Shown here piece after piece: positions 10,857 through 37,744 of a stretch of DNA of 37,744 nt (its first letter is position 1; each line of letters starts with the position of its first letter). Source of the DNA: a virus (Duplodnaviria > Heunggongvirae > Uroviricota > Caudoviricetes); IMG/VR virus record IMGVR_UViG_2541047956_000006; one strand, 5' to 3'. The position numbers and the translations under genes were made by a program. The notes under the pieces were generated by a model that saw only the letters and a list, made by a program, of their open reading frames with translations, was not told the origin of the DNA and searched no databases.

Positions 10857-10880
10857 CCGGCATCCTGCCGGTTATTTCCT
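10854..10880 (+). terminator. Hairpin at end of C, candidate middle-operon terminator
   Basis: 9-bp stem TAACCGGCA / TGCCGGTTA with 3-nt loop followed by TTTCCT. Confidence 0.55.
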
Positions 10881-10947
10881 GTCACCATAATCCCGCACCT
10901 GCCACCTGATTTTTTAGACTGCCATCAGAGCATTTTTTCAGGGAAGC

Positions 10948-12488: not shown

Positions 12489-12775
12489 TTAACGATATTC
12501 TGACCGAAGACCGTCGTCTGGTCATCCTGCGTTCCCTGATGGACTGCAATAACGAAGCAAACGAATCCATCCTTCAGGACTGTCTGGATGCATACGGACA
12601 CAACGTTTCCCGCGATGTGGTTCGCGGCCAGATTGACTGGCTGGCAGAGCAGCAACTGGTCACCGTGGAAAACCTGCGCGGCTTTTATGTCGTAACGCTG
12701 ACCTCCCGAGGTCAGGATGTGGCAGAAGGTCGTGCCCGCGTTGCCGGTGTCAAGCGTCCTCGTCCCCGTGCATGA
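12485..12775 (+). CDS. Hypothetical protein preceding terminase
   Basis: 96 aa; RBS GGAG 8 nt upstream. Confidence 0.6.
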   Translation: MINDILTEDRRLVILRSLMDCNNEANESILQDCLDAYGHNVSRDVVRGQIDWLAEQQLVTVENLRGFYVVTLTSRGQDVAEGRARVAGVKRPRPRA

Positions 12776-12786
12776 CAGGAGGCGTG

Positions 12787-13362: not shown

Positions 13363-13369
13363 GAGGGTT

Positions 13370-17863: not shown

Positions 17864-18330
17864 GTCTTGATATGAACGTTGCCGTGGATGTGCGACGTAT
17901 TCAGCTTGCACTGGATGAACTGGGAACCGTCACACGTGACCGCGCCATTCCCCGTGTGATGGCTGCGGCGCTGCTGTCATCCACGGAACAGGCATTTGAA
18001 CGGCAGGCAGACCCGGATACAGGGAAAGGCTGGGAAGCGTGGAGCGATTCGTGGCAGGCATGGCGTCAGGATCATGGTTTTGTTCCGGGCAGTATCCTTA
18101 CCCTGCATGGCGATCTGGCACGCAGCATTACCACCGATTATGGACAGGATTATGCCCTGATTGGTTCGCCAAAAATTTATGCTGCCATTCATCAGTGGGG
18201 CGGTACACCCGATATGGCACCCCGCCCGGCAGGCGTTCCTGCGCGTCCTTATATGGGGCTGGATAAGACCGGGGAACAGGAAATTTTTGATGCCATCAGA
18301 AAACGTGTCAGCGCCGCTCTGAGGCAATAA
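17860..18330 (+). CDS. G: Virion morphogenesis protein G
   Basis: 156 aa from GTG 17860 preceded by GGAGG. Confidence 0.8.
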   Translation: MSLDMNVAVDVRRIQLALDELGTVTRDRAIPRVMAAALLSSTEQAFERQADPDTGKGWEAWSDSWQAWRQDHGFVPGSILTLHGDLARSITTDYGQDYALIGSPKIYAAIHQWGGTPDMAPRPAGVPARPYMGLDKTGEQEIFDAIRKRVSAALRQ

Positions 18331-18526
18331 ACGGAATCAGACATGAAATCAGCCGCACAGATTTTTTAAAACGCGCCACGGGATTTTTAAACCGGTATTT
18401 AACGGTGTATGAATCCCGTTTTATCTTCATTCCACTTTCTTTCTCCAGTACTCAAATAGCATAACCCCAGATTTTCCCGCACCTCCCGCAAACTGACTGC
18501 TCACAAACCATGATGAGCAGCAGGAC
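18331..18526. promoter_or_regulatory. Central intergenic region between G and I: candidate strong gyrase site and late promoter
   Basis: 196-bp non-coding gap about 100-300 bp left of the prophage midpoint; in Mu the strong gyrase site lies between G and I (established knowledge). Confidence 0.45.
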
Positions 18527-19609
18527 ATGAAAAAACACGCGATTGGCATTGCCGCACTGAATGCGCTGTCCATTGACGATGACGGCTGGTGCCAGCTATT
18601 GCCTGCCGGTCATTTCAGTGCCCGTGATGGTCGTCCGTTTGATGTGACAGGCGGTCAGGGGTGGTTCATCGACGGTGAGATTGCCGGGCGTCTGATTGAA
18701 GGCGTTCGCGCGCTCAACCAGGACGTGCTGATTGATTACGAGCATAACCAGCTACGTAAGGACAAAGGATTACCCCCGGAACAACTCGTCGCGGCTGGCT
18801 GGTTTAACGCCGATGAAATGCAGTGGCGTGAAGGTGAAGGGTTATTTATCCACCCACGCTGGACGGCGGCGGCCCAGCAGCGCATCGATGACGGCGAATT
18901 TGGTTATCTCTCTGCGGTTTTTCCGTATGACACCGCCACCGGTGCGGTGCTGCAAATCCGCCTTGCTGCGCTGACCAATGACCCCGGTGCCACCGGCATG
19001 AAAAAGCTGACCGCACTGGCGGCAGACCTTCCCGACATCCTTCAACAGGAGAACAAACCCATGAATGAAACGCTGCGCAAGCTGCTTGCGCGTCTTGGGG
19101 TGACTGTCCCCGAAAATGCAGACATCACCGATGAACAGGCAACAGCGGCACTGACCGCGCTGGACACGCTGGAAATTAATGCCGGGAAAGTGGCGGCGTT
19201 GTCTGCCGAACTGGAAAAGGCACAGAAAGCCGCCGTTGACCTGACGAAATACGTCCCGGTGGAAAGCTACAACGCCCTGCGTGATGAACTGGCACAGGCG
19301 ACTGCACAAAGCGCCACAGCCAGCCTGAGCGCCGTTCTGGACAAGGCGGAACAGGAAGGCCGCATTTTCAAAAGCGAACGTACCTATCTGGAACAGCTTG
19401 GCGGTCAGATTGGCGTGGCGGCACTGTCGGCACAGCTTGAGAAAAAACAGCCCATCGCTGCGTTATCTGCCATGCAGACCACCACAGCGAAAATCCCGTC
19501 GCAGGAAAAACCGGCGGTGGCGGTGCTGTCTGCGGAAGATCTCGCCGCAGCCCGTCTGCTGGGTAAAACCGAAGCAGAATTTCTGAAACTGAAAGAGGAT
19601 TCAAAATAA
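18527..19609 (+). CDS. I: Head protease / scaffold protein I
   Basis: 360 aa; Ala/Glu-rich coiled-coil C-terminal half typical of a nested scaffold. Confidence 0.88.
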   Translation: MKKHAIGIAALNALSIDDDGWCQLLPAGHFSARDGRPFDVTGGQGWFIDGEIAGRLIEGVRALNQDVLIDYEHNQLRKDKGLPPEQLVAAGWFNADEMQWREGEGLFIHPRWTAAAQQRIDDGEFGYLSAVFPYDTATGAVLQIRLAALTNDPGATGMKKLTALAADLPDILQQENKPMNETLRKLLARLGVTVPENADITDEQATAALTALDTLEINAGKVAALSAELEKAQKAAVDLTKYVPVESYNALRDELAQATAQSATASLSAVLDKAEQEGRIFKSERTYLEQLGGQIGVAALSAQLEKKQPIAALSAMQTTTAKIPSQEKPAVAVLSAEDLAAARLLGKTEAEFLKLKEDSK

Positions 19610-20547
19610 TGCCAACTCCGATTACTCCTGCGATGATCACCTCGCTGATGACCGGCTACCGTGGCGATTTTCAGGCTGGTATGGCAATGGCCCCGTCGCA
19701 GTACCAGAAAATTGCAATGACCGTGCCATCCACGTCGAAATCCAACACGTACGGCTGGCTGGGCCAGTTTCCGCAATTCCGTGAGTGGATTGGTTCGCGT
19801 GTCATCGAGAAGATGAAAGCCTATGGCTATTCCATTGTGAACAAAACCTTTGAAGGCACGGTAGCCATTAGCCGGGATGACTTCGAAGACGACAATCTCG
19901 GTATTTATTCTCCACTGTTCCAGGAGATGGGCCGAGCCGCAGCGGCACAGCCGGACGAACTGGTGTTCGCAGCTCTGCGTGACGGTGTGAAAGTCGCCTG
20001 TTATGACGGACAGAACTTCTTCGATACCGAACATCCTGTTTATCCGAAAGTGGATGGCACCGGAGATGTGAAGAACGTCAGTAATAAATTTGTGGCACAG
20101 ACTGCCGAAAAAAGCGATTACACCGGTCCTGCCTGGTATCTGCTTGACTGTTCCCGCGCTGTGAAACCGCTGATTTATCAGGATCGCCGAAAGGCAGAAC
20201 TGGTTGCCCAGACCAAAGTCGATGAAGGCCGGGCCTTTACGGATAACGAGTTTGTGTTTGGTGCATCAGCCCGCCGCAATGTGGGGTACGGCTTCTGGCA
20301 GATGGCTTACATGATGCAGGCACCGCTGACGCTGGATAATCTCTGGCTCGGCTGGTCGGCCATGCGTGAATTTACGGCTGATGGCGGGCGCAAGCTGGGG
20401 ATTAAGCCCACGCACATTGTGGTGCCCACCTCTCTGGAAAAACAGGCGGTGCAGTTACTGGAACGCGAACTGTTCGCGGATGGCAATACCACCGTCTCCA
20501 ACGAGATGAAGGGTAAGCTGCAACTGGTTGTCGCTGACTACCTGTAA
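19609..20547 (+). CDS. T: Major head (capsid) protein T
   Basis: 312 aa; TAATG overlap with I; followed by a terminator hairpin. Confidence 0.9.
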   Translation: MPTPITPAMITSLMTGYRGDFQAGMAMAPSQYQKIAMTVPSTSKSNTYGWLGQFPQFREWIGSRVIEKMKAYGYSIVNKTFEGTVAISRDDFEDDNLGIYSPLFQEMGRAAAAQPDELVFAALRDGVKVACYDGQNFFDTEHPVYPKVDGTGDVKNVSNKFVAQTAEKSDYTGPAWYLLDCSRAVKPLIYQDRRKAELVAQTKVDEGRAFTDNEFVFGASARRNVGYGFWQMAYMMQAPLTLDNLWLGWSAMREFTADGGRKLGIKPTHIVVPTSLEKQAVQLLERELFADGNTTVSNEMKGKLQLVVADYL

Positions 20548-20555
20548 CCGTCGTT

Positions 20556-20579
20556 AAAAGGCGGTTCAGGCCGCCTTTT
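20556..20579 (+). terminator. Hairpin after major head gene
   Basis: 9-bp stem AAAAGGCGG / CCGCCTTTT with 6-nt loop. Confidence 0.65.
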
Positions 20580-20613
20580 AACCTGATTTAAAGGAAAAGG
20601 AGGAGCATGTGTT

Positions 20614-21024
20614 ATGTCAGGCACTTCGCTTAATTCACAACGGCTGGACACTTCTCGCATCACTTGCACGGCGATTATTAAATGCCTTCGTCCGGTCTAC
20701 CGCCGCGCCGGAATCGCCTTTACGCGTGGCGAAAACACCGTGGAAGTCACCGAAGAACAACTGGCGATCATTCGTGCCGACAGCGTGCTGTCTGTGGTAT
20801 CTGCATCGTCAGCAGAAACGCTCGCTGAGGCTGGGGGGCTGGACGTTCTGGGTGTGGGCGATCTGAATACCCGTATCCGTGCGACCGTTGCCGGTCTGGA
20901 TAAGGCAAACCCGGAGCACTTTACCGCAGGGGGAGAACCCAAAGTGAAAGCCGTCAGTGCGGCGCTGGGAGAACCGGTGAGCAGTGCGCAAATCAAAGCG
21001 GCGCTGGCTGAGGCGGATGCATGA
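20614..21024 (+). CDS. Hypothetical head-region protein
   Basis: 136 aa; strong RBS AAGGAGGAG upstream of ATG 20614. Confidence 0.6.
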   Translation: MSGTSLNSQRLDTSRITCTAIIKCLRPVYRRAGIAFTRGENTVEVTEEQLAIIRADSVLSVVSASSAETLAEAGGLDVLGVGDLNTRIRATVAGLDKANPEHFTAGGEPKVKAVSAALGEPVSSAQIKAALAEADA

Positions 21025-21446
21025 ATTACGCGACGGTAAATGACCTGTGCGCCCGCTATACACGTACGCGGCTGGATATTCTCACCCGCCCTAAAACAGC
21101 GGACGGTCAGCCGGATGATGCCGTGGCAGAACAGGCACTGGCAGATGCTTCGGCCTTTATTGATGGCTATCTCGCCGCGCGCTTTGTTCTGCCGCTTACC
21201 GTCGTCCCCTCACTGCTGAAACGGCAGTGTTGCGTGGTGGCCTGGTTTTATCTGAATGAATCACAACCCACAGAGCAGATCACCGCAACTTACAGGGACA
21301 CGGTGCGCTGGCTGGAACAGGTGCGCGATGGCAAAACAGATCCCGGTGTGGAAAGCAGGACGGCAGCCTCGCCGGATGGCGAAAACCTTGTGCAGGTGCA
21401 GTCTGACACGCCGGTCTTCTCACGAAAACAGAAGGGGTTTATCTGA
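21021..21446 (+). CDS. J: Head completion protein J
   Basis: 141 aa; position and size match Mu J. Confidence 0.78.
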   Translation: MNYATVNDLCARYTRTRLDILTRPKTADGQPDDAVAEQALADASAFIDGYLAARFVLPLTVVPSLLKRQCCVVAWFYLNESQPTEQITATYRDTVRWLEQVRDGKTDPGVESRTAASPDGENLVQVQSDTPVFSRKQKGFI

Positions 21447-21994
21447 TGCTGGAAGAAACCGAAGCCGCACTGCTGGCGCGCGTTCGTGAGTTGTTTGGGG
21501 CAACCTTGCGGCAGGTGGAACCCCTTACCGGCACATGGACTAACGAGGATGTACACCGTCTCTTTCTGGCCCCTCCATCGGTATTTCTGGCATGGATGGG
21601 CTGTGGTGAGGGGCGTACGCGTCGGGAAGTTGAAAGTCGCTGGGCATTTTTTGTCGTGGCGGAGTTGCTGAACGGGGAACCGGTAAACCGGCCCGGTATT
21701 TATCAGATTGTGGAGCGACTGATTGCCGGTGTTAACGGTCAGACGTTTGGCCCGACCACCGGGATGAGACTGACGCAGGTCAGAAATCTTTGTGACGACA
21801 ACCGTATCAATGCCGGTGTGGTGCTTTACGGCGTTCTGTTCAGTGGCACTACCCCGCTGCCGTCCGTGGTGGACATGGATTCGCTGGATGATTACGAGCG
21901 TCACTGGCAGACCTGGAAATTCCCGGACGAAACCCCGGAATTTGCCGCACATATCAATGTGAATCAGGAAAAGGATCATGATGCTGAAAATTAA
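21446..21994 (+). CDS. K: Neck / tail completion protein K
   Basis: 182 aa; Mu late gene order. Confidence 0.78.
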   Translation: MLEETEAALLARVRELFGATLRQVEPLTGTWTNEDVHRLFLAPPSVFLAWMGCGEGRTRREVESRWAFFVVAELLNGEPVNRPGIYQIVERLIAGVNGQTFGPTTGMRLTQVRNLCDDNRINAGVVLYGVLFSGTTPLPSVVDMDSLDDYERHWQTWKFPDETPEFAAHINVNQEKDHDAEN

Positions 21995-22184
21995 ACCCGC
22001 AGCGGGAAAAGCCATCCGTGACCCGCTCACGATGAAATTACTGGCTCCGGAGGGAGAAGAAAAGCCCCGTAACAGTTTCTGGATACGTCGCCTTGCAGCC
22101 GGTGATGTGGTTGAAGTCGGGAACACCGAAAACACGGCGGATGATACCGACGCTGCGCCGAAAAAACGGAGTAAATCGAAATGA
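21978..22184 (+). CDS. Hypothetical small late protein
   Basis: 68 aa; basic C-terminus (PKKRSKSK); overlaps K end. Confidence 0.55.
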
Positions 22185-23668
22185 GCGATATTTCATTTAA
22201 CGCGATCCCGTCAGATGTTCGCGTTCCTCTGACGTATATCGAATTTGATAACAGTAATGCCGTCAGCGGAACACCGGCACCCCGTCAGCGCGTGCTGATG
22301 TTCGGGCAAAGCGGAAGTAAAGCCAGTGCGGCACCAAACGTGCCTGTCCGTATCCGTTCCGGCTCACAGGCCAGTGCGGCGTTTGGTCAGGGTTCCATGC
22401 TGGCACTGATGGCAGATGCATTCCTGAACGCTAACCGCGTGGCGGAGCTGTGGTGTATTCCGCAGGGGAACGGCACCGGTAATGCTGCTGTCGGTGAAAT
22501 CTCACTGTCAGGAACGGCAGGCGAAAACGGCTCGCTTGTGACTTACATTGCCGGTCAGCGACTGGCGGTATCTGTCGCAGCAGGTGCAACGGGAGCGGCG
22601 CTGGCTGACCTGCTGGTTGCCCGAATCAAAGGCCAGCCGGATTTACCGGTGACGGCAGAAGTTCGCGCAGACAGCGGGGATGATGACACCCATGCAGATG
22701 TGGTTCTGAGTGCAAAATTTACGGGTGCATTATCTGCCGTGGACGTGCGCTGGAACTATTACGCGGGTGAAACCACCCCTTACGGGATTATCACGGCATT
22801 CAAAGCCGCCTCCGGGAAAAATGGCAACCCGGATATCAGCGCAAGTATCGCGGGAATGGGCGATCTGCAATACAAATATATTGTGATGCCCTATACCGAT
22901 GAACCGAACCTGAATCTGTTACGCACTGAATTGCAGGAACGCTGGGGACCGGTCAATCAGGCTGATGGCTTTGCCGTGACAGTGCTGTCCGGCACGTATG
23001 GGGATATTTCTACGTTTGGTGTCAGTCGTAATGACCATCTGATCTCCTGTATGGGGATTGCCGGTGCACCGGAACCGTCATACCTGTACGCCGCCACACT
23101 GTGTGCTGTTGCCAGCCAGGCGCTTTCCATCGACCCGGCGCGTCCTCTCCAGACGCTGACGTTGCCCGGAAGAATGCCGCCTGCGGTGGGGGATCGTTTC
23201 ACCTGGTCAGAACGTAATGCGCTGCTGTTTGACGGCATCTCCACGTTTAACGTGAATGATGGTGGTGAAATGCAGATTGAACGCATGATCACGATGTACC
23301 GCACAAACAAGTACGGTGACAGCGATCCGTCTTATCTGAACGTGAATACCATCGCCACGCTGAGTTATCTGCGTTATTCGCTGCGAACCCGCATCACGCA
23401 GAAATTCCCGAACTACAAGCTGGCAAGTGATGGCACCCGCTTTGCCACCGGTCAGGCCGTGGTAACGCCATCCGTGATCAAAACGGAACTGCTGGCACTG
23501 TTTGAAGAATGGGAAAACGCCGGGCTGGTCGAGGATTTCGACACGTTCAAAGAGGAGCTGTATGTGGCACGTAACAAGGACGACAAAGACCGTCTTGATG
23601 TGCTGTGCGGCCCGAATCTGATTAACCAGTTCCGCATTTTCGCGGCACAAGTTCAGTTCATTCTGTAA
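22181..23668 (+). CDS. L: Tail sheath protein L
   Basis: 495 aa, followed directly by a 118-aa tube-sized gene. Confidence 0.9.
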
Positions 23669-23677
23669 GGAGCATTT

Positions 23678-24034
23678 ATGGCTGGAAATCAGCGTCAGGG
23701 GGTGGCGTTCATCCGTGTCAATGGCATGGAGCTTGAAACGATGGAAGGGGCCTCCTTCACGCCTTCCGGCATCACCCGTGAAGAAGTGACCGGCTCGCGG
23801 GTTTATGGCTGGAAAGGTAAACCACGTGCCGCAAAGCTGGAATGCAAAATTCCGGGCGGTGGTGATATCGGTCTGGATGAAATCATCGGCTGGGAAAACA
23901 TCACGGCAGAGTTTCAGGCAGACACCGGTGAAACCTGGATGATGGCGAATGCCTGGCAGGCAGATGAACCGAAAAACGACGGCGGCGAAATTTCGCTGGT
24001 ACTGATGGCAAAACAAAGCAAACGCATTGCATAA
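23678..24034 (+). CDS. M: Tail tube protein M
   Basis: 118 aa; sheath-tube pair. Confidence 0.87.
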   Translation: MAGNQRQGVAFIRVNGMELETMEGASFTPSGITREEVTGSRVYGWKGKPRAAKLECKIPGGGDIGLDEIIGWENITAEFQADTGETWMMANAWQADEPKNDGGEISLVLMAKQSKRIA

Positions 24035-24043
24035 GGGGAAACA

Positions 24044-24478
24044 ATGGACGAAATGAATTTAAGTCCTGAAGCACAGGAACTGCATGACAGCATTGTGGCT
24101 GAGCTTCAGTCCGGTGGTCTGAAACTGAAAGACGGCCTGCCGTTCGGCACCGGTGACGAGACTGAAATGCAGTATGACGTGACACTGCGTGAACTGACCG
24201 CAGGCGATCTGATTGATGCCCAGGCGGCTGCTGAAAAGCTGGTAATGAGCAAGGAAGGCCCGGTGCTGGTCAGTTCCCCGTCCCGGATGGGACTGGAAAT
24301 GCTGCGCCGACAGATTGCCAGCGTGGGCTGCATCAAAGGCCCGTTATCGCTGGCGCTGATGCGCAAGCTGTCTGTTGATGACTTCCAGCGTCTGTCGCTG
24401 GCTACAGAGATGCACGACATGGCTGTGGCGGCATCGCTGACGCAAGAACGGGGGCGAGTGGCTGCGGTGCCGGAATGA
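24044..24478 (+). CDS. Y: Tail assembly chaperone-like protein Y
   Basis: 144 aa between tube and tape measure genes. Confidence 0.7.
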   Translation: MDEMNLSPEAQELHDSIVAELQSGGLKLKDGLPFGTGDETEMQYDVTLRELTAGDLIDAQAAAEKLVMSKEGPVLVSSPSRMGLEMLRRQIASVGCIKGPLSLALMRKLSVDDFQRLSLATEMHDMAVAASLTQERGRVAAVPE

Positions 24479-24622
24479 TATTGAGAAAGCGGCGACAGCG
24501 ATTGGCGTTATTCTGAAAAGTGGCCCGGAATGGGCCTTGTCTCTCCCGCTGTCCCGCTTTTTCCGGCACTGCCAGCAGGCGAAAACCCTCTCTCAATATC
24601 ACCGTTAAATCAGGAAATCTCT

Positions 24623-26695
24623 ATGACCGGGAAACGCTTAAAGGCGTCTGTCATTATTGATCTTAATGGCAATCTTTCCCGGCGTTCCCGCCAGTATTCG
24701 AACCAGATAAACGCCCTGTCCCGTAGCGGGCAAAGTTCCCTTCGTGCCCTGCGTATGGAGGTTGTGCGCGTTTCTGGTGCCATTGACAGAATGGGTTCTC
24801 TGTCAACCCGTACATTCCGAATGCTGTCAGCCGGGGCGCTGGGTATCGCTGGCGTGGGTTACACCGCCAATAAACTGTTTATTGGTGCAGCCGCCCAGCG
24901 TGAGCAACAGATTATCGCCATGAACTCGCTGTATCACGGCGATAAGGTCAGAGCGCAGGCCATGATGGCCTGGGCAAAGCAGAACGCGAAGGACACCACG
25001 TGGGGGCTGAGTGGTGTTCTGGATGAGATCCGTTCGTCAAAAGGCTTCGGCATGACGGATGAACAGACGAAACAGTTCATCACCATGTTGCAGGATCAGG
25101 GGGCCATGCACGGCTGGGATTTACCCACTGCACAGGGTGCCTCACTGCAACTGAAACAGATGTTTGCCCGCCAGCAAATCACAGCGGCGGATGCCAACCT
25201 GCTGACCGGTTACGGTATTAACGTTTACCAGACGCTGGCGGATGCACTGGGTAAAGACGTTAAGGATATCCGCAAACAAGGTGAAAAAGGCAAGCTGGGC
25301 CTGAAATCCATTCTGACGGTATTCAGAACGCTGTCAGAACAGTCAAAAGGTGCACAGGCCAGTGCGATGAACTCCTGGGACGGGATGTTCGCCCAGATGG
25401 AAGCTAACCTGCTTGAATTTCGCATAAAGGTGGCAAACAGCGGCCCCTTTGAAGAAATCAAGAACGAGATGCGCTGGGTGCTTAACTGGCACGACATGGC
25501 GGATAAATCCGGGGAACTTGATGCACTGGCAGAAAACATTGGTCAGAAATTTCTGACCACGTTCAGAACGGTAAAAATCGCGGCACAGGAATTATGGCGC
25601 TGGCTGAAACCGGGTAAAGATGCGCTGGCATGGGTTGACCAGAATATTGTCAGCCTGAAAAAACTGGCTGCTGTTCTGGTGTCTGTCTGGCTTGCCAATA
25701 AAGCCCTGAGAGCAGGCTGGGCCGTGGCAAAACCCTCATGGCAGGTTGCCAGTTATCCGTTTAAAACCGGGCGTCGTATGTGGCGCTGGATGCGAAACCG
25801 CAAACGTGGGCAGGCAGGGCTGCCGGTCCCGGATGCCATGACGTCTGAGACGCTGTTGCAGGGTATCGGCATTCAGCGTGTGTTTGTCATCAACTGGCCC
25901 CGTGGATTTGGTGGCTACGGGAGTGGCGGCGGTCGTCGCGTACGGAGCGGCGGAAGAATGGCCCCGCTGTTACCCCGCCAGCCGTTATTGCTGTCCGGGC
26001 CACAGCCGCTGGCATTACCTGCACCACGCCCTGTACTGGCATTACCCCCACCCGGCGTACCGGTAACGGCACGGCCTGCACCATTACCTTTACCCGGTAA
26101 ATCCGGTCTTCTGAGCAGGCTTGCAGGCAGTGCTGCCGGGCAACTGGTTACGGGAACGGTCGGAAAGCTGGCTGATGCCGGGCGTGCCGCTGGCGGGTGG
26201 TTTTCCGGTATCGGAAACAAACTTGCAGGCAGTGCGATCGGTCGGGTTGTGACAAAAGGTGCCGGGGCGCTGGGCTGGATGGGGAAAGGTGCCGGTCGTG
26301 CGTTGTCACGTCTGGGTGGCCCGGTAATGGGGGCACTCCAGCTTGCCCCCGTCCTGATGGATGAGCAGGCGTCAACCCATGAAAAAGCAGGCGCAATTGG
26401 CAGTACAGCCGGTGCATGGCTCGGCGGTGCCGTTGGCAGCCTTGCCGGACCGCTGGGTACGGTTGCCGGTGCCACGCTGGGCAGTGTCGCCGGGGAGTAT
26501 CTGGGCGGTTTTGTAACCGACCTGTATCAGAAATGGACGGCCACGGATAAGGAACCGCAGGAACAAAAAGTCAATGCGGAAGCCTCGCTGCGCGTCGAAC
26601 TTGGCGAGGGGTTACGTCTGACCAGTTCCCGCGTCACCGAGGACGGTATGGGGCTGAATATTTACGCGGGCGATAACTACATTACGGGCTGGTAA
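24623..26695 (+). CDS. N: Tail tape measure protein N
   Basis: 690 aa from ATG 24623 (RBS AGGAA; track start 24530 also possible); Gly/Ala/Pro-rich low-complexity segment. Confidence 0.88.
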
Positions 26696-26699
26696 AACC

Positions 26700-28187
26700 A
26701 TGTTTGAAGATGCTTTAAATGCCGTTAATGCTGTCCGGGATAAAACCGGTGGAGGCAGGAAAACAACCGGCAAAGGCACGTTCCGTAACGTGCCGTTTCT
26801 CGTCATCGAGGAGCAAAAACAGGCTGGCGGACGTCGCCTGGTTAAACGCGAGTACCCGTTACGTGATACCGGCGGCGTCAATGACCTGGGGAAAAAGCTT
26901 CGCTCCCGTACATTCAGCGCCTGCATTCTGAACAGCAACGCAGAAACAGCCAGAGATGAAGCGGGTGCGCTGATGGATGCTCTTGATGCTCCGGGTAGCG
27001 GTGAGCTGGTACATCCTGATTTCGGCACTGTGGACGTCATGGTGGATTCATGGGAATGCCGCACTAAAGCGGATGAACTGAATTATTACGCGTTCACCGT
27101 TACCGTTTATCCGTCGTTGCAGGATACAGCCCCGGACGCAGAGACAGACACCAGTGCAGCCGTACCGGCACAGGCCGTTGCTGTAACCGGTTCTCTGGGA
27201 GATACGCTGTCCTCTGTCTGGCAGACTGTAAAAGATGGCACTGCGGCGGCAACCGCCGTGATGGAAGCTGTAACCGGTGTCATCGATGATATCAGTGATG
27301 CGGTGGACAATCTGGGGGTTACGCAGACTGTCAGCGGTCTGATGGGATCGCTTTCTGCGATGAAAGGCTCTGTGACCAGCCTGATTAACCAGCCTGCCAT
27401 GCTGGCCTCCTCGCTGATGGGGGCGCTGTCCGGCGTTTCATCGTTATGCGATACCCGGACAGCATTTTCCACATGGAACCGTCTGGCGCAGCGATTCGAA
27501 CGTCGCCATGCCGCCACCGCAGGCAAACAGGGGACAATCACAACCTCGTACAACAGTCCGGTTGCAGAAAAAAATATTGCCACACTGAACTACGTCATGC
27601 TGGCAGCGGCGCAGACATACCGGGCAGAAGCTGCCAGCCAGGCACTGACTGCGGCACTGGATTTCAGTCGCCGGATGGATAATGCCGCCCGTGCACCTGT
27701 ACTGGATGCCCCGTCCACCACAACCGGCACAGCCAGCGGGGCCAGCAGCACATCTGCTACCGTCACACAGGGACAGTTACAGTTAACTGCCATAACCCCG
27801 GACGGCGGCTTTTCACAGGTATCCTTTTCAGACAGTGGTACAGCCACGCCCCCGGTATTTGAAAGTGTGTCCGATATCGGAAAAACAGCCGCCATGCTGG
27901 GGGCTGCACTGGATACCGTCATTCTGACGGCATCTGAGCAGGGCTTTTCGACAGACAGTGTTCAGCTTACGCAACTGCGTCTGCTGGTTGTTGCCGACCT
28001 GGAAAAACGCGGGCTGCAACTGGCGGGCAGTGAAACGCACCGCCTGCCGGAGACGATGCCTGCAATGGTGGCCCTGTACCGTTACACAGGAAACAGCCGG
28101 AACTGGCAACGGCTGGCCCGCAGGAACGGTATCAGCAACCCGTTGTTTGTTCCCGGTGGTGTCAGTATTGAGGTGATTAATGAGTAA
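26700..28187 (+). CDS. P: Tail/DNA circularisation protein P
   Basis: 495 aa after tape measure; Mu gene order. Confidence 0.85.
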
Positions 28188-29319
28188 TACCGTCACGCTG
28201 CGAACGGATGGCAGGCTTTTTACCGGCTGGACGTCAGTCTCTGTCACCCGCTCCATTGAATCCGTAGCCGGATATTTTGAGCTGGGGGTGAACGTGCCAC
28301 CGGGCACGGATTTATCCGGGCTGGCACCGGGGAAGGCGTTCACGCTGGAAATCGACGGGCAGATTGTCTGCACCGGTTATATCGATTCGCGGCGACGCCA
28401 GATGACCGCTGACAGCATGAAAATCACTATCGCCGGACGTGACAAAACGGCTGACCTGATTGACTGTGCTGCCGTTTACAGTGGCGGACAGTGGAAAAAC
28501 CGCACACTGGAGCAGATTGCGCGTGACCTGTGCGCTCCTTATGGCGTTACCGTTCGCTGGGAGCTTTCCGATAAGGAAAGTTCGGCAGCTTTTCCCGGCT
28601 TCACGCTGGACCATTCAGAAACCGTTTATGAGGCGCTGGTGCGTGCCTCCCGCGCACGCGGTGTACTGATGACCAGCAATGCCGCAGGAGAGCTGGTATT
28701 CAGCCGGGCTGCCAGCACAGCAACTGATGAGCTGGTTCTCGGAGAAAATCTGCTGACACTGGATTTTGAGGAAGACTTCCGCGACCGGTTCAGCGAATAC
28801 ACCGTCAAGGGGTATGCCCGCGCAAACGGTGCTGAGGGTGATGATATTGATGCGAAAAGTATCGTCTCCCGGAAAGGGACCGCCACTGACAGTGATGTGA
28901 CCCGTTACAGACCGATGATCATCATTGCCGACAGCAAAATTACGGCGAAGGATGCACAGGCCCGCGCCCTGCGTGAGCAACGCCGCAGACTGGCAAAATC
29001 CATCACCTTTGAGGCAGAAATTGACGGATGGACACGCAAGGACGGGCAACTCTGGTTGCCGAACCTGCTGGTCACTATTGATGCCTCGAAATATGCCATC
29101 AAAACCACAGAATTACTGGTCAGCAAAGTCACCCTGATACTGAATGACCAGGACGGGCTGAAAACCCGCGTCAGCCTTGCACCACGCGAAGGCTTTCTGG
29201 TGCCGGTTGAAAGCGACCGTAAAAACAGGAAAAGCGGCGACAGTAACGGCGGTATTGATGCGCTGGTTGAAGATTATTATCGCAGACACCCGGAGAAAAC
29301 GCCGCCGTGGAAAGAGTAA
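28180..29319 (+). CDS. Q: Baseplate hub protein Q
   Basis: 379 aa; Mu gene order. Confidence 0.85.
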
Positions 29320-29900
29320 ATGATTTCGCCATGAACCGCCTGCTGACACCGCTGATGCGTCGTGTGCGCCTGATGCTTGCGCGCGCTGTTGTTAACGTGA
29401 TTAACGACGGGCGAAAGGTTCAGAACCTGCAGGTCGGTCTGCTGGATGATGAGGAATCCGATGAAGTGGAGCGCCTGCAAAATTACGGACATTTCAGCGT
29501 TCCCCTGCCGGGCGCAGAGGCGCTGATTGCCTGTGTGGGTGCACAACGTGATCAGGGGATCGCCGTTGTGGTGGAAGACCGCCGCTACCGCCCGACAAAT
29601 CTTGAACCGGGTGATGCAGGCATTTACCACCATGAGGGGCATCGTATCCGGCTGACAAAGGACGGACGCTGCATCATTACCTGTAAAACGGTTGAGGTTT
29701 ACGCTGATGAAAGTATGACCGTTGACACACCCAGAACCACGTTTACCGGCGACGTTGAGATCCAGAAAGGTCTGGGCGTTAAAGGTAAAAGCCAGTTCGA
29801 CAGCAATATTACTGCCCCGGATGCCATCATCAATGGCAAATCGACGGATAAGCATATCCACCGTGGCGACAGCGGCGGAACCACGGGGCCAATGCAATGA
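29307..29900 (+). CDS. V: Baseplate spike protein V
   Basis: 197 aa; Mu gene order. Confidence 0.82.
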   Translation: MERVNDFAMNRLLTPLMRRVRLMLARAVVNVINDGRKVQNLQVGLLDDEESDEVERLQNYGHFSVPLPGAEALIACVGAQRDQGIAVVVEDRRYRPTNLEPGDAGIYHHEGHRIRLTKDGRCIITCKTVEVYADESMTVDTPRTTFTGDVEIQKGLGVKGKSQFDSNITAPDAIINGKSTDKHIHRGDSGGTTGPMQ

Positions 29901-30334
29901 CCGATTTAGCCATTATCTGGACGAACGGACGCGGCGATATTGCACAGGATGGCATTGACATGCTGACCGACGACAGCCTGACAACCGATGTGACAATCTC
30001 CCTGTTTACAGACCGGCGCGCGCTGGATTCTGACACGCTGCCGGATGGTTCAGATGATCGCCGTGGATGGTGGGGTGACAGTTACCGCGACCGCCCCATC
30101 GGTTCGCGGTTGTGGCTGTTATCACGTGAAAAAGCCACACCGGATACGCTGGAACGCGCCAGAGGGTATGCCGAAGAGGCGCTGGAATGGCTGAAAACAG
30201 CGGGCCGGGTAAGTGCGATTAACGTCAGAGCGGAACAGTTACATCAGGGCTGGTTATACCTCTACATTGCACTGACATTACCGGATGGTTCCGTTATTCC
30301 TTATGAGTTTAAAGCAGCATTTAACGGGGTTTAA
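29897..30334 (+). CDS. W: Baseplate protein W
   Basis: 145 aa; Mu gene order. Confidence 0.82.
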   Translation: MTDLAIIWTNGRGDIAQDGIDMLTDDSLTTDVTISLFTDRRALDSDTLPDGSDDRRGWWGDSYRDRPIGSRLWLLSREKATPDTLERARGYAEEALEWLKTAGRVSAINVRAEQLHQGWLYLYIALTLPDGSVIPYEFKAAFNGV

Positions 30335-31417
30335 ATGGCTTATTCACCACCGACATTATCATCGCTGATTGCCCGTACAGAACAGAATATTGAACAGCGC
30401 CTGCCGGGTAGCTGGCCTCAGGCCCGTGAAAAAACGCTGAGTGCCATTGCTTATGCTCAGGCGGGCCTTGCTGCCGGTTGTCACGAGCATATTTCATGGG
30501 TTGGACGGCAGATTATCCCGTCGACAGCAGATGAAGATGAGTTGCTGGAGCACTGCCGGTTCTGGGGCGTGCGCCGCAAACAGGCGACAGCCGCCAGCGG
30601 CCCGCTGACTGTCACCACATCGGCAGCGACCACCATTCCTGCCGGTACACGCTGGCAGCGTGCTGATGGTGTGGTTTACAGCCTGGCTGATGCCATTGTG
30701 ATTGACCGTGCAGGAACGACGGAAATTACCGTTACCGCACTGGCTGCCGGTGAGGCAGGAAATACCGGTGAGAATACCCTTTTAACGTTGATCACCCCGG
30801 TTGCCTGTGTTGTTTCCGATGCCATCACTGTAAAAGGGTTTTCCGGTGGGGCTGATATTGAGAGTGCAGCGGAGCTGCTGTCACGGCTGGAATATCGTGT
30901 CCAGTATCCTCCGTTCGGCGGTAATCAGTTTGATTATGTTCGCTGGGCGCGTGAAGTCAGCGGCGTTACCCGTGCCTGGTGTTTTCCGACATGGAAAGGC
31001 GGTGGCACAGTCGGGGTGACGTTTGTTATGGATAACCGGAGCAATATTTTTCCACAACCGGCAGACGTGGAACGCGTGGCGGATTATATCGCCGGTCATA
31101 CTGACCCGATCACTGGTCTGATTGTCGGACAGCCTGATGGTGTAAATGTCACGGTATTTGCGGCAAAGGCAAAGCCGGTAAATCCACGGATTTATATATC
31201 ACCGAAGACAGCCGAACTGAAACAGGCTATTACTCACGCCATTAATACCATGTTTTTTAATGAGGTGACGCCGGGCGGCGCACTTGCCCCCTCCCGTATT
31301 ATCCGTGCGGTGGCAGGTGTTACCGGTCTGGATGATTTTGAAGTGCGTTTCCCGACAGAGATCCAGCGTTCGGAGAATACGGAACTGTTAACACCGGGGA
31401 CAATTGAATGGCTGTAA
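30335..31417 (+). CDS. R: Baseplate J-like protein R
   Basis: 360 aa; Mu gene order. Confidence 0.85.
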   Translation: MAYSPPTLSSLIARTEQNIEQRLPGSWPQAREKTLSAIAYAQAGLAAGCHEHISWVGRQIIPSTADEDELLEHCRFWGVRRKQATAASGPLTVTTSAATTIPAGTRWQRADGVVYSLADAIVIDRAGTTEITVTALAAGEAGNTGENTLLTLITPVACVVSDAITVKGFSGGADIESAAELLSRLEYRVQYPPFGGNQFDYVRWAREVSGVTRAWCFPTWKGGGTVGVTFVMDNRSNIFPQPADVERVADYIAGHTDPITGLIVGQPDGVNVTVFAAKAKPVNPRIYISPKTAELKQAITHAINTMFFNEVTPGGALAPSRIIRAVAGVTGLDDFEVRFPTEIQRSENTELLTPGTIEWL

Positions 31418-31950
31418 CACCCTATCAGACGGCCTTTCTGCAATTACTGCCGTCAGGGCTTGCCTGGAATAAAAGCCCCGACAGCAAATTATCTGCGCTG
31501 GCGCAGGCCATCAGCGACGTGATTGCCACTGCGGCGGATGATGCGCGGCAAATGCTGCGGGAGCGTTTCCCGTCCACATCCCGCTGGTATCTGGGGGAGT
31601 GGGAATCATTTCTGGGGTTGCCTGACTGTACCAGCGAAAACGGCACCCTGTCCGAACGCCAGCGGGCTGCCGCGAATAAAATGCGTATGACCGGCAATCT
31701 GAGTCGGCGCTTTTATGAATGGCTGGCTGCGCAGTACGGTTTTACCGTCAGGCTGACGGATTCCACAGAAGGCCAGTGGGTTACGCAGGTCAATATTTAC
31801 GGTATTAAAAATTATCGCAACGCAACGGTGCTGGATAATGTTCTGACGCCGTTACGTGTTTATGAATCGGGTGCGCTGGAATGTTTACTGGAGAAATATA
31901 AACCCGCGCATCAGATTTATAAATTTGTTTACCATGACGGAGATAACTAA
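31408..31950 (+). CDS. Tail/baseplate protein preceding tail fibre
   Basis: 180 aa; position before S. Confidence 0.75.
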   Translation: MAVTPYQTAFLQLLPSGLAWNKSPDSKLSALAQAISDVIATAADDARQMLRERFPSTSRWYLGEWESFLGLPDCTSENGTLSERQRAAANKMRMTGNLSRRFYEWLAAQYGFTVRLTDSTEGQWVTQVNIYGIKNYRNATVLDNVLTPLRVYESGALECLLEKYKPAHQIYKFVYHDGDN

Positions 31951-33473
31951 TGTTTTATATTGATAACGACAGCGGCGTAACCGTCATGCCGCCCGTATCC
32001 GCCCAGCGTAGTGCTATCGTTCGCTGGTTTTCAGAAGGTGACGGGAATAATGTTATCACATGGCCCGGCATGGACTGGTTTAATATTGTGCAGGCGGAGT
32101 TATTAAACACGCTGGAAGAAGCCGGTATTCAACCGGATAAAACAAAATTAAACCAGCTTGCACTGTCCATTAAAGCCATTATGAGCAATAACGCGCTGCT
32201 GATAAAAAATAACCTCAGCGAAATTAAAACTGCCGGGGCATCAGCACAGCGTACAGCACGTGAAAATCTGGATATCTATGATGCCAGCCTGAACAAAAAA
32301 GGACTCGTTCAGCTAACCAGTGCCACTGACAGCCCCAGTGAAACGCTGGCAGCCACCGCAAAAGCGGTGAAAATTGCGATGGATAATGCCAATGCCCGTC
32401 TGGCAAAAGACCGGAACGGAGCAGATATTCCCAATAAGCCGCTGTTTATCCAAAACCTCGGTTTACAGGAAACGGTAAATCAGGCTTCTGGCGCATTACA
32501 GAAAAACCAGAACGGCGCAGATATTCCCGATAAAAAACTATTCCTGCGTAATATCGGCACAACAAATTCAACAACCATGTCTTTTAGTGGTGGTGCTGGA
32601 TGGTTCAAACTGGCAACTGTAACAATGCCACAAGCCAGTTCCGTGGTTTACATAAGCCTGATTGGTGGCGCAGGGTTTAACGTTGGCTCCCCGCATCAAG
32701 CAGGCATCTCTGAGCTGGTTCTGCGTGCCGGAAATGGAAATCCAAAAGGTATTACTGGTGCATTATGGCGACGGACCTCGGTTGGATTTACTAATTTTGC
32801 ATGGGTGAATACATCCGGTGATACCTATGATGTTTATGTTGAAATAGGTAATTACGCCACAGGTGTTAATATTCAGTGGGATTATACCAGTAACGCCAGC
32901 GTAACGATTCATACATCACCAACTTATACAGCGAATAAACCAACAGGCCTGACAGATGGAACTGTATATGTAATTTACAGTTCGCACATTAAACCGACAG
33001 CTGCTGAGGTTGGGGCGTTGTCATTATCTGGCGGTCAATTGAATGGTGCACTGGGCATCGGAACATCCAGTGCTCTTGGTGGTAACTCGATTGTTTTGGG
33101 TGATAATGACACGGGATTTAAACAAAATGGCGACGGGTATCTGGATGTTTATGCTAATAACGTCCATGTTATGCGCTTTGTCTCCGGCAGTATTCAAAGT
33201 AATAAAACCATAAATATTACAGGTCGTGTTAATCCCTCAGATTACGGTAACTTTGATTCCCGTTATGTGAAAGATGTTCGACTTGGTTCACAGCAATATT
33301 ATGGCGTGAAAAACTGGCAAACATGGAATTTCCAGTGCCCGTCAGGTCATGTATTGACTGGTATTAATGTTCAGGATACAGGGTCCAATTCTGCCGATAA
33401 TATAGCGGGCGTTTATTACAGACCCGTTCAAAAGTATATAAATGGCACCTGGTATAATGTAGCGAGCGTTTAA
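31950..33473 (+). CDS. S: Tail fibre protein S (constant part plus currently expressed variable part)
   Basis: 507 aa; the left gix inverted repeat lies inside the gene at 32446..32494, marking the constant/variable junction. Confidence 0.9.
32446..32494. repeat. Left inverted repeat of G segment containing gixL (26-mer at 32446..32471)
   Basis: TTATCCAAAACCTCGGTTTACAGGAA...; reverse complement present at 35483..35531 with 2 mismatches over 49 bp. Confidence 0.85.
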
Positions 33474-33474
33474 T

Positions 33475-34002
33475 ATGATGCACTTAAAGAACATAAAAGC
33501 GGGTAACGCTAAAACACTGGAACAGTATGAGTTAACAAAGAAACACGGAGTTATCTGGCTTTACTCTGAGGACGGAAAAAACTGGTATGAGGAAGTGAAA
33601 AACTTTCAGCCAGACACCATAAAGATTGTTTACGATGAAAATAATATTATTGTCGCCATCACCAAAGATGCCTCCACGCTTAACCCTGAAGGTTTTAGCG
33701 TCGTTGAGGTTCCCGATATAACAACCAATCGTCGGGCCGATGATTCCGGTAAGTGGATGTTTAAGGACGGAGCTGTGGTTAAACGGATTTATACAGCTGA
33801 CGAACAGCAACAACAGGCCGAATCACAAAAGGCCGCGTTACTTTCCGAAGCAGAAAGCGTTATTCAGCCACTGGAGCGCGCTGTCAGGCTGAATATGGCG
33901 ACGGATGAGGAACGCGCACGACTGGAATCATGGGAACGCTACAGTGTTCTGGTCAGCCGTGTGGATACGGCAAATCCTGAATGGCCACAAAAGCCTGAAT
34001 AA
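33475..34002 (+). CDS. U: Tail fibre assembly protein U
   Basis: 175 aa; N-terminal ~120 aa clearly paralogous to the minus-strand ORF at 34031..34564. Confidence 0.88.
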
Positions 34003-34030
34003 AAATTAAGGCCCGATATCGGGCCTTCTC

Positions 34031-34564
34031 TCATTCTGGTTGTTCGGGAAACGTTACTGGCAGGCTGGAAGTGTCTGTAGATTCGACTTTCTGCGCAAAG
34101 AGCATCCACTCTGTTAATTTTTGTTTATTCTCGTCGGAAATGATGCCCAGCCGTAGCTGTGAGTCCCATAGCTGGGTTTTATCCCTGACAAGTTGCAACA
34201 GGCTTTGCTTTTCATTCTCTGCCTGCTGCCTCTGTTCCTCCTCGGTATAAGTTCGCTTTATCACTACGCCATCTTTGAACATCCATTTACCCGAAATATC
34301 AGCACGGCGATTTGCTGTAATATCAGGAACCTCAACGACGCTTGCGCCTTCTGGATTAATTGCTGAAACATCCTTTTCAATACAAATAATAACGCCGTTG
34401 TGGTCATAGACCATTTTCAACGTATCAGGCTGAAAGTTCTTTTGTTCCTCATACCAGTTTTTCCCATCCTCTGTATAAAGCCATTTGATGTTAAATTGTT
34501 TCGTTAGCTGGTATTGCTCTTTTGTTTTAGGGTTGCCAGCAGTAATATTTTTTAAGTGCATCAT
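34031..34564 (-). CDS. Alternative tail fibre assembly protein U'
   Basis: 177 aa, paralog of U, inside the G segment in inverted orientation. Confidence 0.85.
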   Translation of the reverse strand: MMHLKNITAGNPKTKEQYQLTKQFNIKWLYTEDGKNWYEEQKNFQPDTLKMVYDHNGVIICIEKDVSAINPEGASVVEVPDITANRRADISGKWMFKDGVVIKRTYTEEEQRQQAENEKQSLLQLVRDKTQLWDSQLRLGIISDENKQKLTEWMLFAQKVESTDTSSLPVTFPEQPE

Positions 34565-34566
34565 AA

Positions 34567-35518
34567 TTAAATACTCCCCGCGTTATACCACGTTCCATTA
34601 ATGCAATACTGAATTGGCCTTGCCTGAGTTGTATCAATTAATTCATCACGGTTTCCGTTAACTGAACCCGTAACGACATAACCTGACCTGTCAGACCAGC
34701 CGGGACCATTCCATGTCTGAACAGATGACAGACCGCCAAGGCGAATACCTGTAATAAACCTTGAGTTACATTCTGCCTGCGTGTATGCACCAACATCTCC
34801 CGCAGAGGGTTTGCGGGTTGTGGTGTAAAACTCTGACCAGTCAGCTTCAAAGCCATAACCATCACGCGCTGAACGATAAAAGATACCGCCATTTCTGTAA
34901 TTCACGCGGAACTGTACAGCAGGGCAGCTCCCCGTATTCATATTGAAGTGGAGGATTAATGTCGATGCGCCACCAATATTTGCGTTATAGACCCCGCTAT
35001 TCCAGTTCCAGCCAACAGCTTTATCATTTCCGACAGTGCTTCCTGTTTGCCCTAAAGCAAATGCAGACTGCTGGTTTTTCGTGTTGTAGTCTCGTCGCCA
35101 GCCAGGAGCATAAGCATCACCATGATTAATATAGGTGAATTGAGCGTTAGTAATTCCGCCACCGCTGGAAGTGCTCGGGGTGGTTACACGGATGGTCATG
35201 GCTCCTTTATTACCCATAACCTCAATAACGCAACCTGCAAGATGAATAGTTCCACAGCCAGTATCGGTAATAATTTTATTATTGCCGTATGACCATGAAC
35301 ATTTGCACATCCAGTATGGGTGATTGAATGCCCCTTGAGAATCCAGCCATTCAATCAATTGTGCCGTCGTCCAGTTTCCTGCACCTGTGCTAATAGCACC
35401 ATGAAAAGAGCGGCAAGCACCTATTGTTTGCGTAAATTTATCTTTGTTTGGAATATCTGCGCCATTCTGGTTTTTCTGCAACGCACCAGAAGCCTGATTT
35501 ACCGTTTCCTGTAAACCG
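34567..35518 (-). CDS. Alternative tail fibre variable C-terminal part S' (no own start; fused to the constant part of S after inversion)
   Basis: Open frame running into the right gix repeat; its first codons ([11 protein letters not shown]) repeat the sequence at the constant/variable junction of S. Track start at 35481 is a TTG. Confidence 0.8.
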
Positions 35519-35531
35519 AGGTTTTAGATAA
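35483..35531. repeat. Right inverted repeat of G segment containing gixR (26-mer at 35506..35531)
   Basis: Reverse complement of 32446..32494 with 2 mismatches. Confidence 0.85.
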
Positions 35532-35585
35532 TGGCTGTTTCCGGCCTGCATGGCATGATTTGCGCTTTTAAACGGGAGATCCAGA

Positions 35586-36167
35586 GTGCTGATTGGCTAT
35601 GTAAGGGTATCAACAAATGACCAGAATACAGACCTGCAACGAAACGCTCTTGTTTGTGCAGGATGTGAACAAATATTTGAAGATAAATTAAGCGGAACAA
35701 GGACAGACAGACCTGGATTAAAACGCGCTTTAAAGCGTCTTCAAAAAGGTGACACACTGGTTGTCTGGAAACTGGATCGCCTCGGGCGAAGCATGAAACA
35801 TTTGATTTCTCTCGTAGGGGAATTACGAGAGCGAGGGATTAATTTTCGCAGTCTTACTGACAGTATTGATACGTCATCTCCAATGGGGCGTTTTTTCTTC
35901 CACGTTATGGGTGCCCTGGCTGAGATGGAACGAGAACTAATCATCGAGAGAACGATGGCTGGACTTGCTGCTGCCAGAAATAAAGGCCGTATCGGTGGGC
36001 GACCACCTAAACTAACCAAAGCGGAATGGGAGCAGGCCGGGCGTTTATTAGCACAAGGAATCCCCCGCAAGCAGGTCGCATTGATCTACGATGTGGCCCT
36101 GTCAACGCTGTATAAAAAACACCCCGCCAAACGAACGCATATAGAAAACGACGATCGAATCAATTGA
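35586..36167 (+). CDS. gin: Gin DNA invertase (serine recombinase)
   Basis: 193 aa from GTG 35586; catalytic N-terminus LIGYVRVSTNDQ; matches Mu Gin as I recall it. Confidence 0.97.
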   Translation: MLIGYVRVSTNDQNTDLQRNALVCAGCEQIFEDKLSGTRTDRPGLKRALKRLQKGDTLVVWKLDRLGRSMKHLISLVGELRERGINFRSLTDSIDTSSPMGRFFFHVMGALAEMERELIIERTMAGLAAARNKGRIGGRPPKLTKAEWEQAGRLLAQGIPRKQVALIYDVALSTLYKKHPAKRTHIENDDRIN

Positions 36168-36261
36168 ATCGATCGGTAATACAGATCGATTATGCCCCAA
36201 TAACCACACTCAACCCACGATGTTTTTTAAGATAGTGGCGAATTGATGCAAAGGAGGTGAG
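36153..36261 (+). promoter_or_regulatory. mom promoter regulatory region with three clustered GATC (Dam) sites
   Basis: GATC at 36153, 36171 and 36184 within 35 bp, spanning the gin stop and upstream of com. Confidence 0.7.
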
Positions 36262-36450
36262 ATGAAATCAATTCGCTGTAAAAACTGCAACAAACTGTTA
36301 TTTAAGGCGGATTCCTTTGATCACATTGAAATCAGGTGTCCGCGTTGCAAACGTCACATCATAATGCTGAATGCCTGCGAGCATCCCACGGAGAAACATT
36401 GTGGGAAAAGAGAAAAAATCACGCATTCTGACGAAACCGTGCGTTATTGA
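36262..36450 (+). CDS. com: Com, zinc-finger translational activator of mom
   Basis: 62 aa with CKNC...CPRC; strong RBS AGGAGGTGAG; overlaps start of mom. Confidence 0.9.
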
Positions 36451-37096
36451 GTATGAAGGCCAGATTGTTGGCTATGGTTCAAAGGAACTGCGCGTTGAAA
36501 CCATATCCTGCTGGCTGGCCCGCACAATTATTCAGACAAAGCACTATTCCCGCCGTTTTGTGAATAACTCTTACCTCCACCTGGGAGTATTCAGCGGACG
36601 CGATCTGGTTGGCGTTCTCCAGTGGGGATATGCCCTTAACCCCAACTCAGGTCGTCGTGTCGTGCTTGAAACGGATAACCGGGGCTATATGGAGTTGAAT
36701 CGCATGTGGCTACACGACGACATGCCCCGCAACTCTGAATCACGGGCCATCAGCTACGCGCTGAAAGTTATCAGATTACTGTATCCGTCAGTGGAGTGGG
36801 TTCAGTCATTTGCTGACGAACGCTGCGGACGCGCAGGCGTTGTGTATCAGGCGTCGAATTTTGATTTTATTGGCAGCCATGAAAGCACGTTCTACGAGCT
36901 GGATGGTGAGTGGTATCACGAGATAACGATGAACGCGATTAAGCGGGGTGGACAACGAGGCGTGTATTTACGGGCTAATAAAGAGCGTGCCGTGGCGCAC
37001 AAATTTAATCAGTATCGCTACATCAGATTCCTGAACAAGCGAGCAAGGAAGCGGCTAAATACCAAACTATTCAGGGTTCAGCCATACCCTAAGTGA
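36371..37096 (+). CDS. mom: Mom DNA modification protein (start uncertain: ATG 36371 or GTG 36401)
   Basis: Last gene before right end; overlaps com in another frame. Confidence 0.85.
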
Positions 37097-37116
37097 TCCC
37101 CATGTAATGAATAAAA

Positions 37117-37140
37117 AGCAGTAATTAATACTGCTGTTTC
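37117..37140 (+). terminator. Hairpin after mom, candidate terminator
   Basis: 7-bp stem AGCAGTA / TACTGCT with 5-nt loop followed by GTTTC. Confidence 0.55.
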
Positions 37141-37211
37141 ATTTGAAGCGCGAAAGCTAAAGTTTTCGCATTTATCGTGAAACGCTTTCGCGTTTTTCGT
37201 GCGCCGCTTCA
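37141..37211 (+). promoter_or_regulatory. Right end (attR) with MuA end-binding repeats R1-R3
   Basis: GCGAAAG/CGAAAA-type repeats in both orientations; terminal ...GCGCCGCTTCA. Confidence 0.8.
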
Positions 37212-37744
37212 GCCAGCGCGTCGTCAAACACATCCTGACGGTTGGCGTATTCTTTCATTAACGAGAGATCGTTAAGCGTGCCGGAGTACAGCAACCACAG
37301 CGGAACAATGGCAATCTGCATATGCAACAACCAGCGCCACAGCGGATGCGTGGAGATTCGGCGGATGGCATCGCTACAGGCCAGCAGTGCCAGCGCCGCA
37401 GCCAGCCAGAAACCACTTCCGAGGCAGGTACGCGCCAGCGCACTACCATTTTGCGCCAGTTGTGTCGCCGCCTTTCCAGCTCCCCACACCAGCAATACGA
37501 AGACGAATTGCGCCAGAATGAGTGCAAAAATGCTGCCTTTTTTAGCGGGAATAAAACAGGCTGTCAGCCAGGCGCAACCAACGCCCACCAGCATCCAGAG
37601 AGTTTGCGGCCACAGCTGCCAGAGATGACGCCCCTCACCCGAAACTAAACGATTAGGTGCGTAACTGATAAACGGCAGCGCCGCTGCGATTGCCGTCAGC
37701 AACAGCAGCAGCGCCAGAACAGGATTAATACGGAAATAAGTCAC
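37172..37744 (-). CDS. Host integral membrane protein, 5' portion; last 13 codons come from the prophage right end (gene split by insertion). 5' end runs off the window
   Basis: Minus-strand ORF with several hydrophobic helices; frame continues across the reconstructed empty site into 33..1. Confidence 0.7.
37212..37216. repeat. Target-site duplication, right copy (GCCAG)
   Basis: Identical to 29..33. Confidence 0.85.

Follow-up and report, generated by a model that had tools for sequence, protein, structure and literature searches.

Insertions of phage Mu are classically strongly polar, and MudII protein fusions rely on a reading frame that stays open through the right end of the phage. Lysogens of Mu and D108 share with Mud fusions the TG...CA termini, a 5-bp duplication of the form N-Y-S-R-N and an essentially random site in the host, and in Mud-lac fusions host transcription comes in through the right (S) end. 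The N-Y-S-R-N target consensus of Mu has been described (PMC2602771; PMC12486242).

On the host side, betaine uptake by E. coli proceeds mainly via ProP and ProU. The glycine-betaine ABC transporter OsmF-YehYXW (also YehZYXW), whose permease YehY is b2130 in E. coli K-12, is orthologous to OsmU of Salmonella, which we take to be its counterpart. EcoCyc (PMC5210515), citing Lang et al., 2015, gives osmF, yehY, yehX and yehW as a glycine betaine ABC transporter; the osmF-yehYXW operon is cited in PMC10654073 as RpoS-dependent (Checroun and Gutierrez, 2004), and a review (PMC13033924) counts osmU (osmVWXY) of Salmonella as a third osmoprotectant ABC transporter besides proP and proU.

Here we analyzed a stretch of 37,744 nt (hereafter the window) that carries a Mu-family prophage with host DNA at both edges. 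The interrupted host gene is yehY, the gene for the membrane subunit of the low-affinity glycine-betaine ABC importer. The locus has the termini, the duplication and the essentially random placement of the systems above; it differs from classical Mu mutagenesis in being a prophage of natural origin, carried by a clinical-type B2-like strain, and not a laboratory construct. The reading that we favor, at a probability of about 95%, is Mu-type transposition of a D108/Mu mosaic prophage into yehY, at codon 178, in a CFT073-like strain, with an allele that would be null and polar at a small cost to the cell.

Boundaries, content and relatives of the prophage

The prophage occupies positions 34..37211 on the plus strand (37,178 bp), with TG...CA termini defined by reading of the ends and by similarity to D108 and Mu. 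Its left end begins at 34 with TGTATTGATTCACTTGAAGTACG... (terminal sequence TGTATTGATTCACTTGAAGTACGAAAAAAACC) and its right end closes at 37211 with ...CGTGCGCCGCTTCA (...TTTTTCGTGCGCCGCTTCA), which reads TGAAGCGGCGCACGAAAAACGCGAAAGCG on the opposite strand; both termini have MuA-binding sequences like those of Mu. The pentamer GCCAG stands immediately outside both ends, at 29..33 on the left and 37212..37216 on the right, and this perfect 5-bp duplication fits the Mu target consensus. Genes were assigned from the ORF listing and from the Pfam labels of identical genes: repressor c (174 aa, 373-897, minus strand), ner (1083-1304, plus strand), transposase A (662 aa, 1312-3300, plus strand) and, close to the right end, mom (36371-37096, plus strand). 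Proteins identical to the transposase carry PF02316, PF09039, PF02914 and PF09299 elsewhere, next to a neighboring gene with PF09077 (MuB C-terminal domain). The element thus encodes the DDE transposase MuA, MuB and a Mu-type repressor.

Comparison with the two reference phages gave different results for the two ends. Over the first 25 kb, the match to D108 starts at base 1 of that phage (93% coverage, 96.5% identity), whereas Mu matches this part only from query position 1467 (window 1500), so the immunity and left-end region, with the repressor and ner, is D108-like. Over the last 12 kb, the match to Mu extends to base 36717, where Mu ends (92% coverage, 96.6% identity); the D108 match stops about 120 nt short of the extreme right end, which matches Mu to the last base. 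About 7-9% of each prophage half has no megablast match to D108 or Mu. Judged by these matches, the prophage is a D108/Mu-family mosaic and not Mu, combining a D108-like left end and immunity region with a Mu-like right end; compared with Mu (36,717 bp), it is 37,178 bp long at about 96.5% identity.

Identical copies of the repressor were found in 4190 index blocks of public E. coli assemblies and identical copies of the transposase in 1408, and this D108-like lineage seems to be frequent among the natural prophages of E. coli. Among the 18 loci listed, the host genes flanking the left end of the prophage differ, except for two loci with a common flank; such differing flanks are what one expects of an element that transposes and uses no fixed attachment site. 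We also observed, at 10526-19096 of a locus from GCA_041227795.1, a related Mu-like prophage whose left end lies about 5-8 kb from an intact yehW-yehX-yehY-osmF cluster and which adjoins DUF1307 and DUF1456 genes, a response-regulator/histidine-kinase pair and mlrA. This second match in the neighborhood of the yeh genes is probably a coincidence.

Identity of the interrupted gene and its chimeric reading frame

The ORF listing contains a minus-strand ORF of 190 aa with a GTG start at 37172..37744. The first base of this GTG (37742-37744) is the edge of the window, and the annotated start of yehY in CFT073 (C_RS12620) coincides with position 37744. The window therefore ends exactly on the yehY start, which is why the ORF looks complete in the ORF list while touching the window edge. 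Positions 37217..37744 (minus strand) hold codons 1-176 of yehY and are 100% identical to the CFT073 gene. The right copy of GCCAG supplies, on the yehY strand, codon 177 (CTG, 37216-37214, the final codon made entirely of host DNA) and the first two bases of codon 178. The remaining 37172..37211 (minus strand) belong to the phage: one base completes the junction codon, GCT at 37213-37211, which retains the alanine of the native GCA, and 12 sense codons lying wholly within the phage (37210-37175) are followed by TAA at 37174-37172. The product therefore consists of 178 native YehY residues and 12 phage-encoded residues, and the insertion point lies after nucleotide 533 of the gene, inside codon 178 of 385.

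On the other side of the prophage, positions 1..28 (minus strand) complete codon 178 with its third base and continue through codons 179-187 (...A QHLTLLFGA) as far as the window edge, with 100% identity to CFT073, and the frame is kept once one copy of the duplication is removed. Joining 37744..37217 to 33..1 gives 561 nt; read codon by codon, the join keeps the frame and contains zero stops. Nucleotides 1-561 of yehY are identical to this reconstruction at 561 of 561 positions in CFT073, Nissle 1917, ABU 83972, ATCC 25922 and relatives. A DNA similarity search matched the reconstruction in all 5426 complete RefSeq E. coli genomes, at an identity of at least 90% in every genome searched, and the RefSeq label at the matches was always ‘yehY: glycine betaine ABC transporter permease YehY’. 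Since the reconstructed DNA is 100% identical to annotated yehY, the ORF at 37172..37744 is not a chance ORF. One record, NZ_CP007799.1 (E. coli Nissle 1917, 5.44 Mb), has three separate matches to the 5′ region of yehY where the other Nissle assembly and the median genome have one; this may reflect a duplication or an assembly problem of the record.

Each point that the sequence-only reading had proposed is borne out. The host membrane-protein gene that it saw as split by a Mu-type insertion is confirmed as such by the termini, the GCCAG duplication, the in-frame rejoining and the identity to yehY, and its continuation of the gene at 33..1 holds, as the rejoined 561 nt are open and 100% identical to CFT073 yehY. 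The 13 codons that it counted from the Mu right end before the stop are correct if the stop is included, with 12 residues added, and the codon reading (178 native and 12 phage residues) agrees with its description of a truncated and C-terminally chimeric host protein. A homolog of the reconstructed ORF does exist, yehY in 5426 of 5426 genomes, and the frame is intact in uninserted relatives, with 5423 of the 5426 complete genomes holding at least 80% of the 561 nt.

The genomic context is that of yehY as well. In CFT073 the intact gene (1158 nt, 385 aa) stands in the order bglX-osmF-yehY-yehX-yehW-yohO-mlrA, as the second gene of the osmF-yehY-yehX-yehW operon, in which osmF encodes the substrate-binding protein, yehX the ATPase and yehW the second permease. 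On the source scaffold KE702617.1, osmF (a 305-aa gene with an OpuAC domain) lies directly upstream of yehY, with bglX before it, and a mere 6 nt separate the end of osmF from the start of yehY. Over the 3,500 nt that precede yehY on this scaffold, 3 nt differ from CFT073, which identifies the host as a CFT073-like E. coli strain.

The three frames that enter the right end of the prophage add 0, 12 or 43 residues, and yehY uses the one with 12. Where MudII-type fusions use an open right-end frame (43 codons here), the yehY frame stops after 12 residues. A second minus-strand ORF of 51 aa (37078-37233) has its ATG in host DNA (37233) and continues through the right end in the 43-codon open frame; most likely this second ORF has arisen by chance. 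At the left junction, a TAA closes the yehY frame four codons into the phage end, which rules out a phage ORF fused in frame to distal yehY.

The missing permease core and the remaining N-terminal extension

A Pfam scan of intact CFT073 YehY found BPD_transp_1 (PF00528) at residues 195-376 as the sole domain, and the roughly 175 residues ahead of it form an N-terminal extension; in the 243-aa partner permease YehW, the same domain lies at 68-238. The host sequence in the window lies wholly in the YehY extension. The break precedes the entire BPD_transp_1 domain, the interrupted ORF ending at native residue 178. The reconstructed 187-aa fragment had zero matches in scans against Pfam and NCBIfam, as the fragment consists only of the family-specific extension, and by the same scans the BPD_transp_1 permease core with its cytoplasmic coupling loop is absent from the interrupted ORF. 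The gene was identified through DNA similarity and scans of the intact CFT073 protein. On these grounds we regard the interrupted ORF as a disrupted allele of its gene and not as a functional member of the permease family.

The core of intact YehY (approximately residues 170-372) aligns to ProW (NF008196), ChoW (TIGR03416) and the solved OpuA permease (7ahc), that is, to the ProW/OpuA-type permeases (TC 3.A.1.12), but all scores are far below the equivalog cut-offs (76 bits versus 363-439). NCBIfam models including ProW, ChoW and MetI align only from about residue 170-190 of YehY onward and likewise stay far below their cut-offs, and the solved homologs OpuA 7ahc, MetI 3dhw and PotB only from about residue 170; the 178-aa N-terminal part matches none of the ProW/ChoW/OpuA-type permeases. 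An ABC-transporter-type permease with an N-terminal extension had been guessed from the sequence, and this guess proved right, with BPD_transp_1 found only at 195-376 of the 385-aa protein.

The multiple hydrophobic helices noted in the same reading were recovered by two approaches. Kyte-Doolittle analysis (threshold 1.6) gave four membrane segments in the fragment (9-27, 49-67, 72-90 and 106-124). An AlphaFold2 model of the 190-aa product (18-sequence alignment, mean pLDDT 72.7, pTM 0.65) showed five long helices (8-21, 48-64, 67-99, 110-130 and 134-154) followed by a low-confidence helical tail. Since the model adds a long helix at 134-154 to the four Kyte-Doolittle segments, we adopted five. 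Under the positive-inside rule (KK 68-69, RR 128-129), this number of helices would place the N-terminus of YehY in the cytoplasm and the break in a periplasmic linker just ahead of the first core helix (182-200).

Homologs of the extension were found in Enterobacterales only, with about 69% identity in Salmonella and 45-55% in Kluyvera, Leclercia and Pantoea; the entries are mostly partial (100-311 aa, against 385 aa for the full-length protein) and were used to judge how widely the extension is distributed and how well it is conserved, not to judge its domain architecture. The most conserved stretch comprises 14 residues (160-173, window 37263-37222) immediately before the insertion point. 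L160, L162, E165, Y166, N168, R169 and F173 are invariant in the 18 sequences, and the rest of the extension is divergent. AlphaFold2 confidence is lowest at these conserved residues.

Probable consequences for the operon and competing explanations

A Mu-family prophage has inserted into codon 178 of yehY, duplicating GCCAG. Compared with intact yehY, the gene is split after nucleotide 533 of 1158, and the predicted product has 190 aa instead of 385, without the BPD_transp_1 core. This predicted product keeps residues 1-178, with five predicted helices, and adds 12 phage residues. Without the whole conserved core (195-376), it is predicted to be unable to supply its permease half to the transporter. 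In an ABC importer of the YehY type, both permease subunits must contribute their core domains, and we therefore infer that the yehY allele is null for transport.

Effects on the rest of the operon would follow from the orientation of the prophage. Transcripts from the osmF promoter would enter the phage right end, antisense to mom. A promoter/terminator scan found a terminator-like hairpin (AGCAGTA-TTAAT-TACTGCT followed by TTTTATT) at 37117..37135 on the minus (yehY) strand, a consensus match with a putative function; on this strand it lies 37 nt past the chimeric stop, and its plus-strand face follows mom. Past the putative hairpin, osmF-promoter transcripts would face 37 kb of phage DNA. 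In the intact operon of CFT073, the end of yehY and the start of yehX share 8 nt, suggesting a translational coupling of yehX to yehY that the insertion would abolish. Antisense entry, the hairpin, the 37 kb of phage DNA and the lost coupling together lead us to infer that yehX and yehW are uncoupled from the promoter, and the insertion is probably polar on both genes, cutting them off from the osmF promoter. The distal part of yehY, yehX and yehW are assumed to be intact in the strain on the basis of the clean duplication, 33 nt of distal host DNA being contained in the window. Because betaine uptake relies mainly on ProP and ProU, the cost of yehY loss to the cell is probably small, and this would explain the persistence of a randomly placed prophage.

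Loss of function would be incomplete if transcription of repressor c (897..373, minus strand) crossed the phage left end and continued into distal yehY and yehX-yehW. Lysogens would in that case still make the ATPase and the second permease, and an internal start might yield a YehY core shortened at its N-terminus. Repressor c and the distal fragment of yehY do share a strand, a simple scan found no minus-strand terminator-like site between 373 and 34, and the distal fragment would hold the whole BPD_transp_1 domain (195-376). However, after the TAA four codons into the phage end no start codon follows in the yehY frame within the window, and the next Met downstream of the break is residue 255 of the CFT073 protein, within the core domain. 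The translational coupling suggested by the 8-nt overlap would be lost, and the strong polarity that is classical for Mu insertions also speaks against read-out, which we consider very unlikely. A more far-reaching proposal is that the operon has been rewired, constitutive repressor read-out giving yehX-yehW, and possibly a shortened YehY core, an expression coupled to lysogeny and not to RpoS, while the free five-helix YehY module (with its conserved 14-residue motif, in Enterobacterales only) forms a stable membrane protein that is active by itself; we would give this proposal, too, only a slight chance.

We return to the insertion itself and the reality of its junctions. The exact 190-aa chimeric protein is encoded both on KE702617.1 (GCA_000461715.1, 1.095 Mb) and on a Logan contig from SRR958843, so that the right junction is reproduced in two assemblies; the window has 0 mismatches to KE702617.1 over 10,573 nt and 0 mismatches over 2,249 nt to the independent Logan contig, which is reported for 5 samples. 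An assembly artefact, in which a phage contig was wrongly fused to the yehY region or the assembly picked up a minority subpopulation that arose when the phage replicated, the chromosome itself keeping an intact yehY, could be imagined from a draft scaffold and from Mu-type phages that replicate by transposition and fill induced cultures with many transient junctions, but with both junctions in one gene, a perfect 5-bp duplication, an exact in-frame reconstruction of the empty site, that mismatch-free independent contig and a location within a 1.095-Mb scaffold, its probability is close to nil.

The same phage-host junction was found in none of the 5426 complete RefSeq E. coli genomes, where matches cover either the phage half or the host half alone. 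In 5419 of these genomes at least 80% of yehY is present as one contiguous stretch, and in at most 7 the gene is interrupted or incomplete. The allele is thus rare, but biologically unsurprising.

Transposition into yehY adds one more Mu-family prophage at an essentially random chromosomal site in natural E. coli, and the locus gives base-exact prophage boundaries (34..37211). It is an insertional knockout of a well-known and apparently non-essential gene, an event of an ordinary and already understood kind. The 190-aa ORF is better labelled a prophage-disrupted yehY pseudogene than a hypothetical membrane protein, and the low-affinity betaine importer YehZYXW (OsmU-type) is predicted to be missing from the strain.
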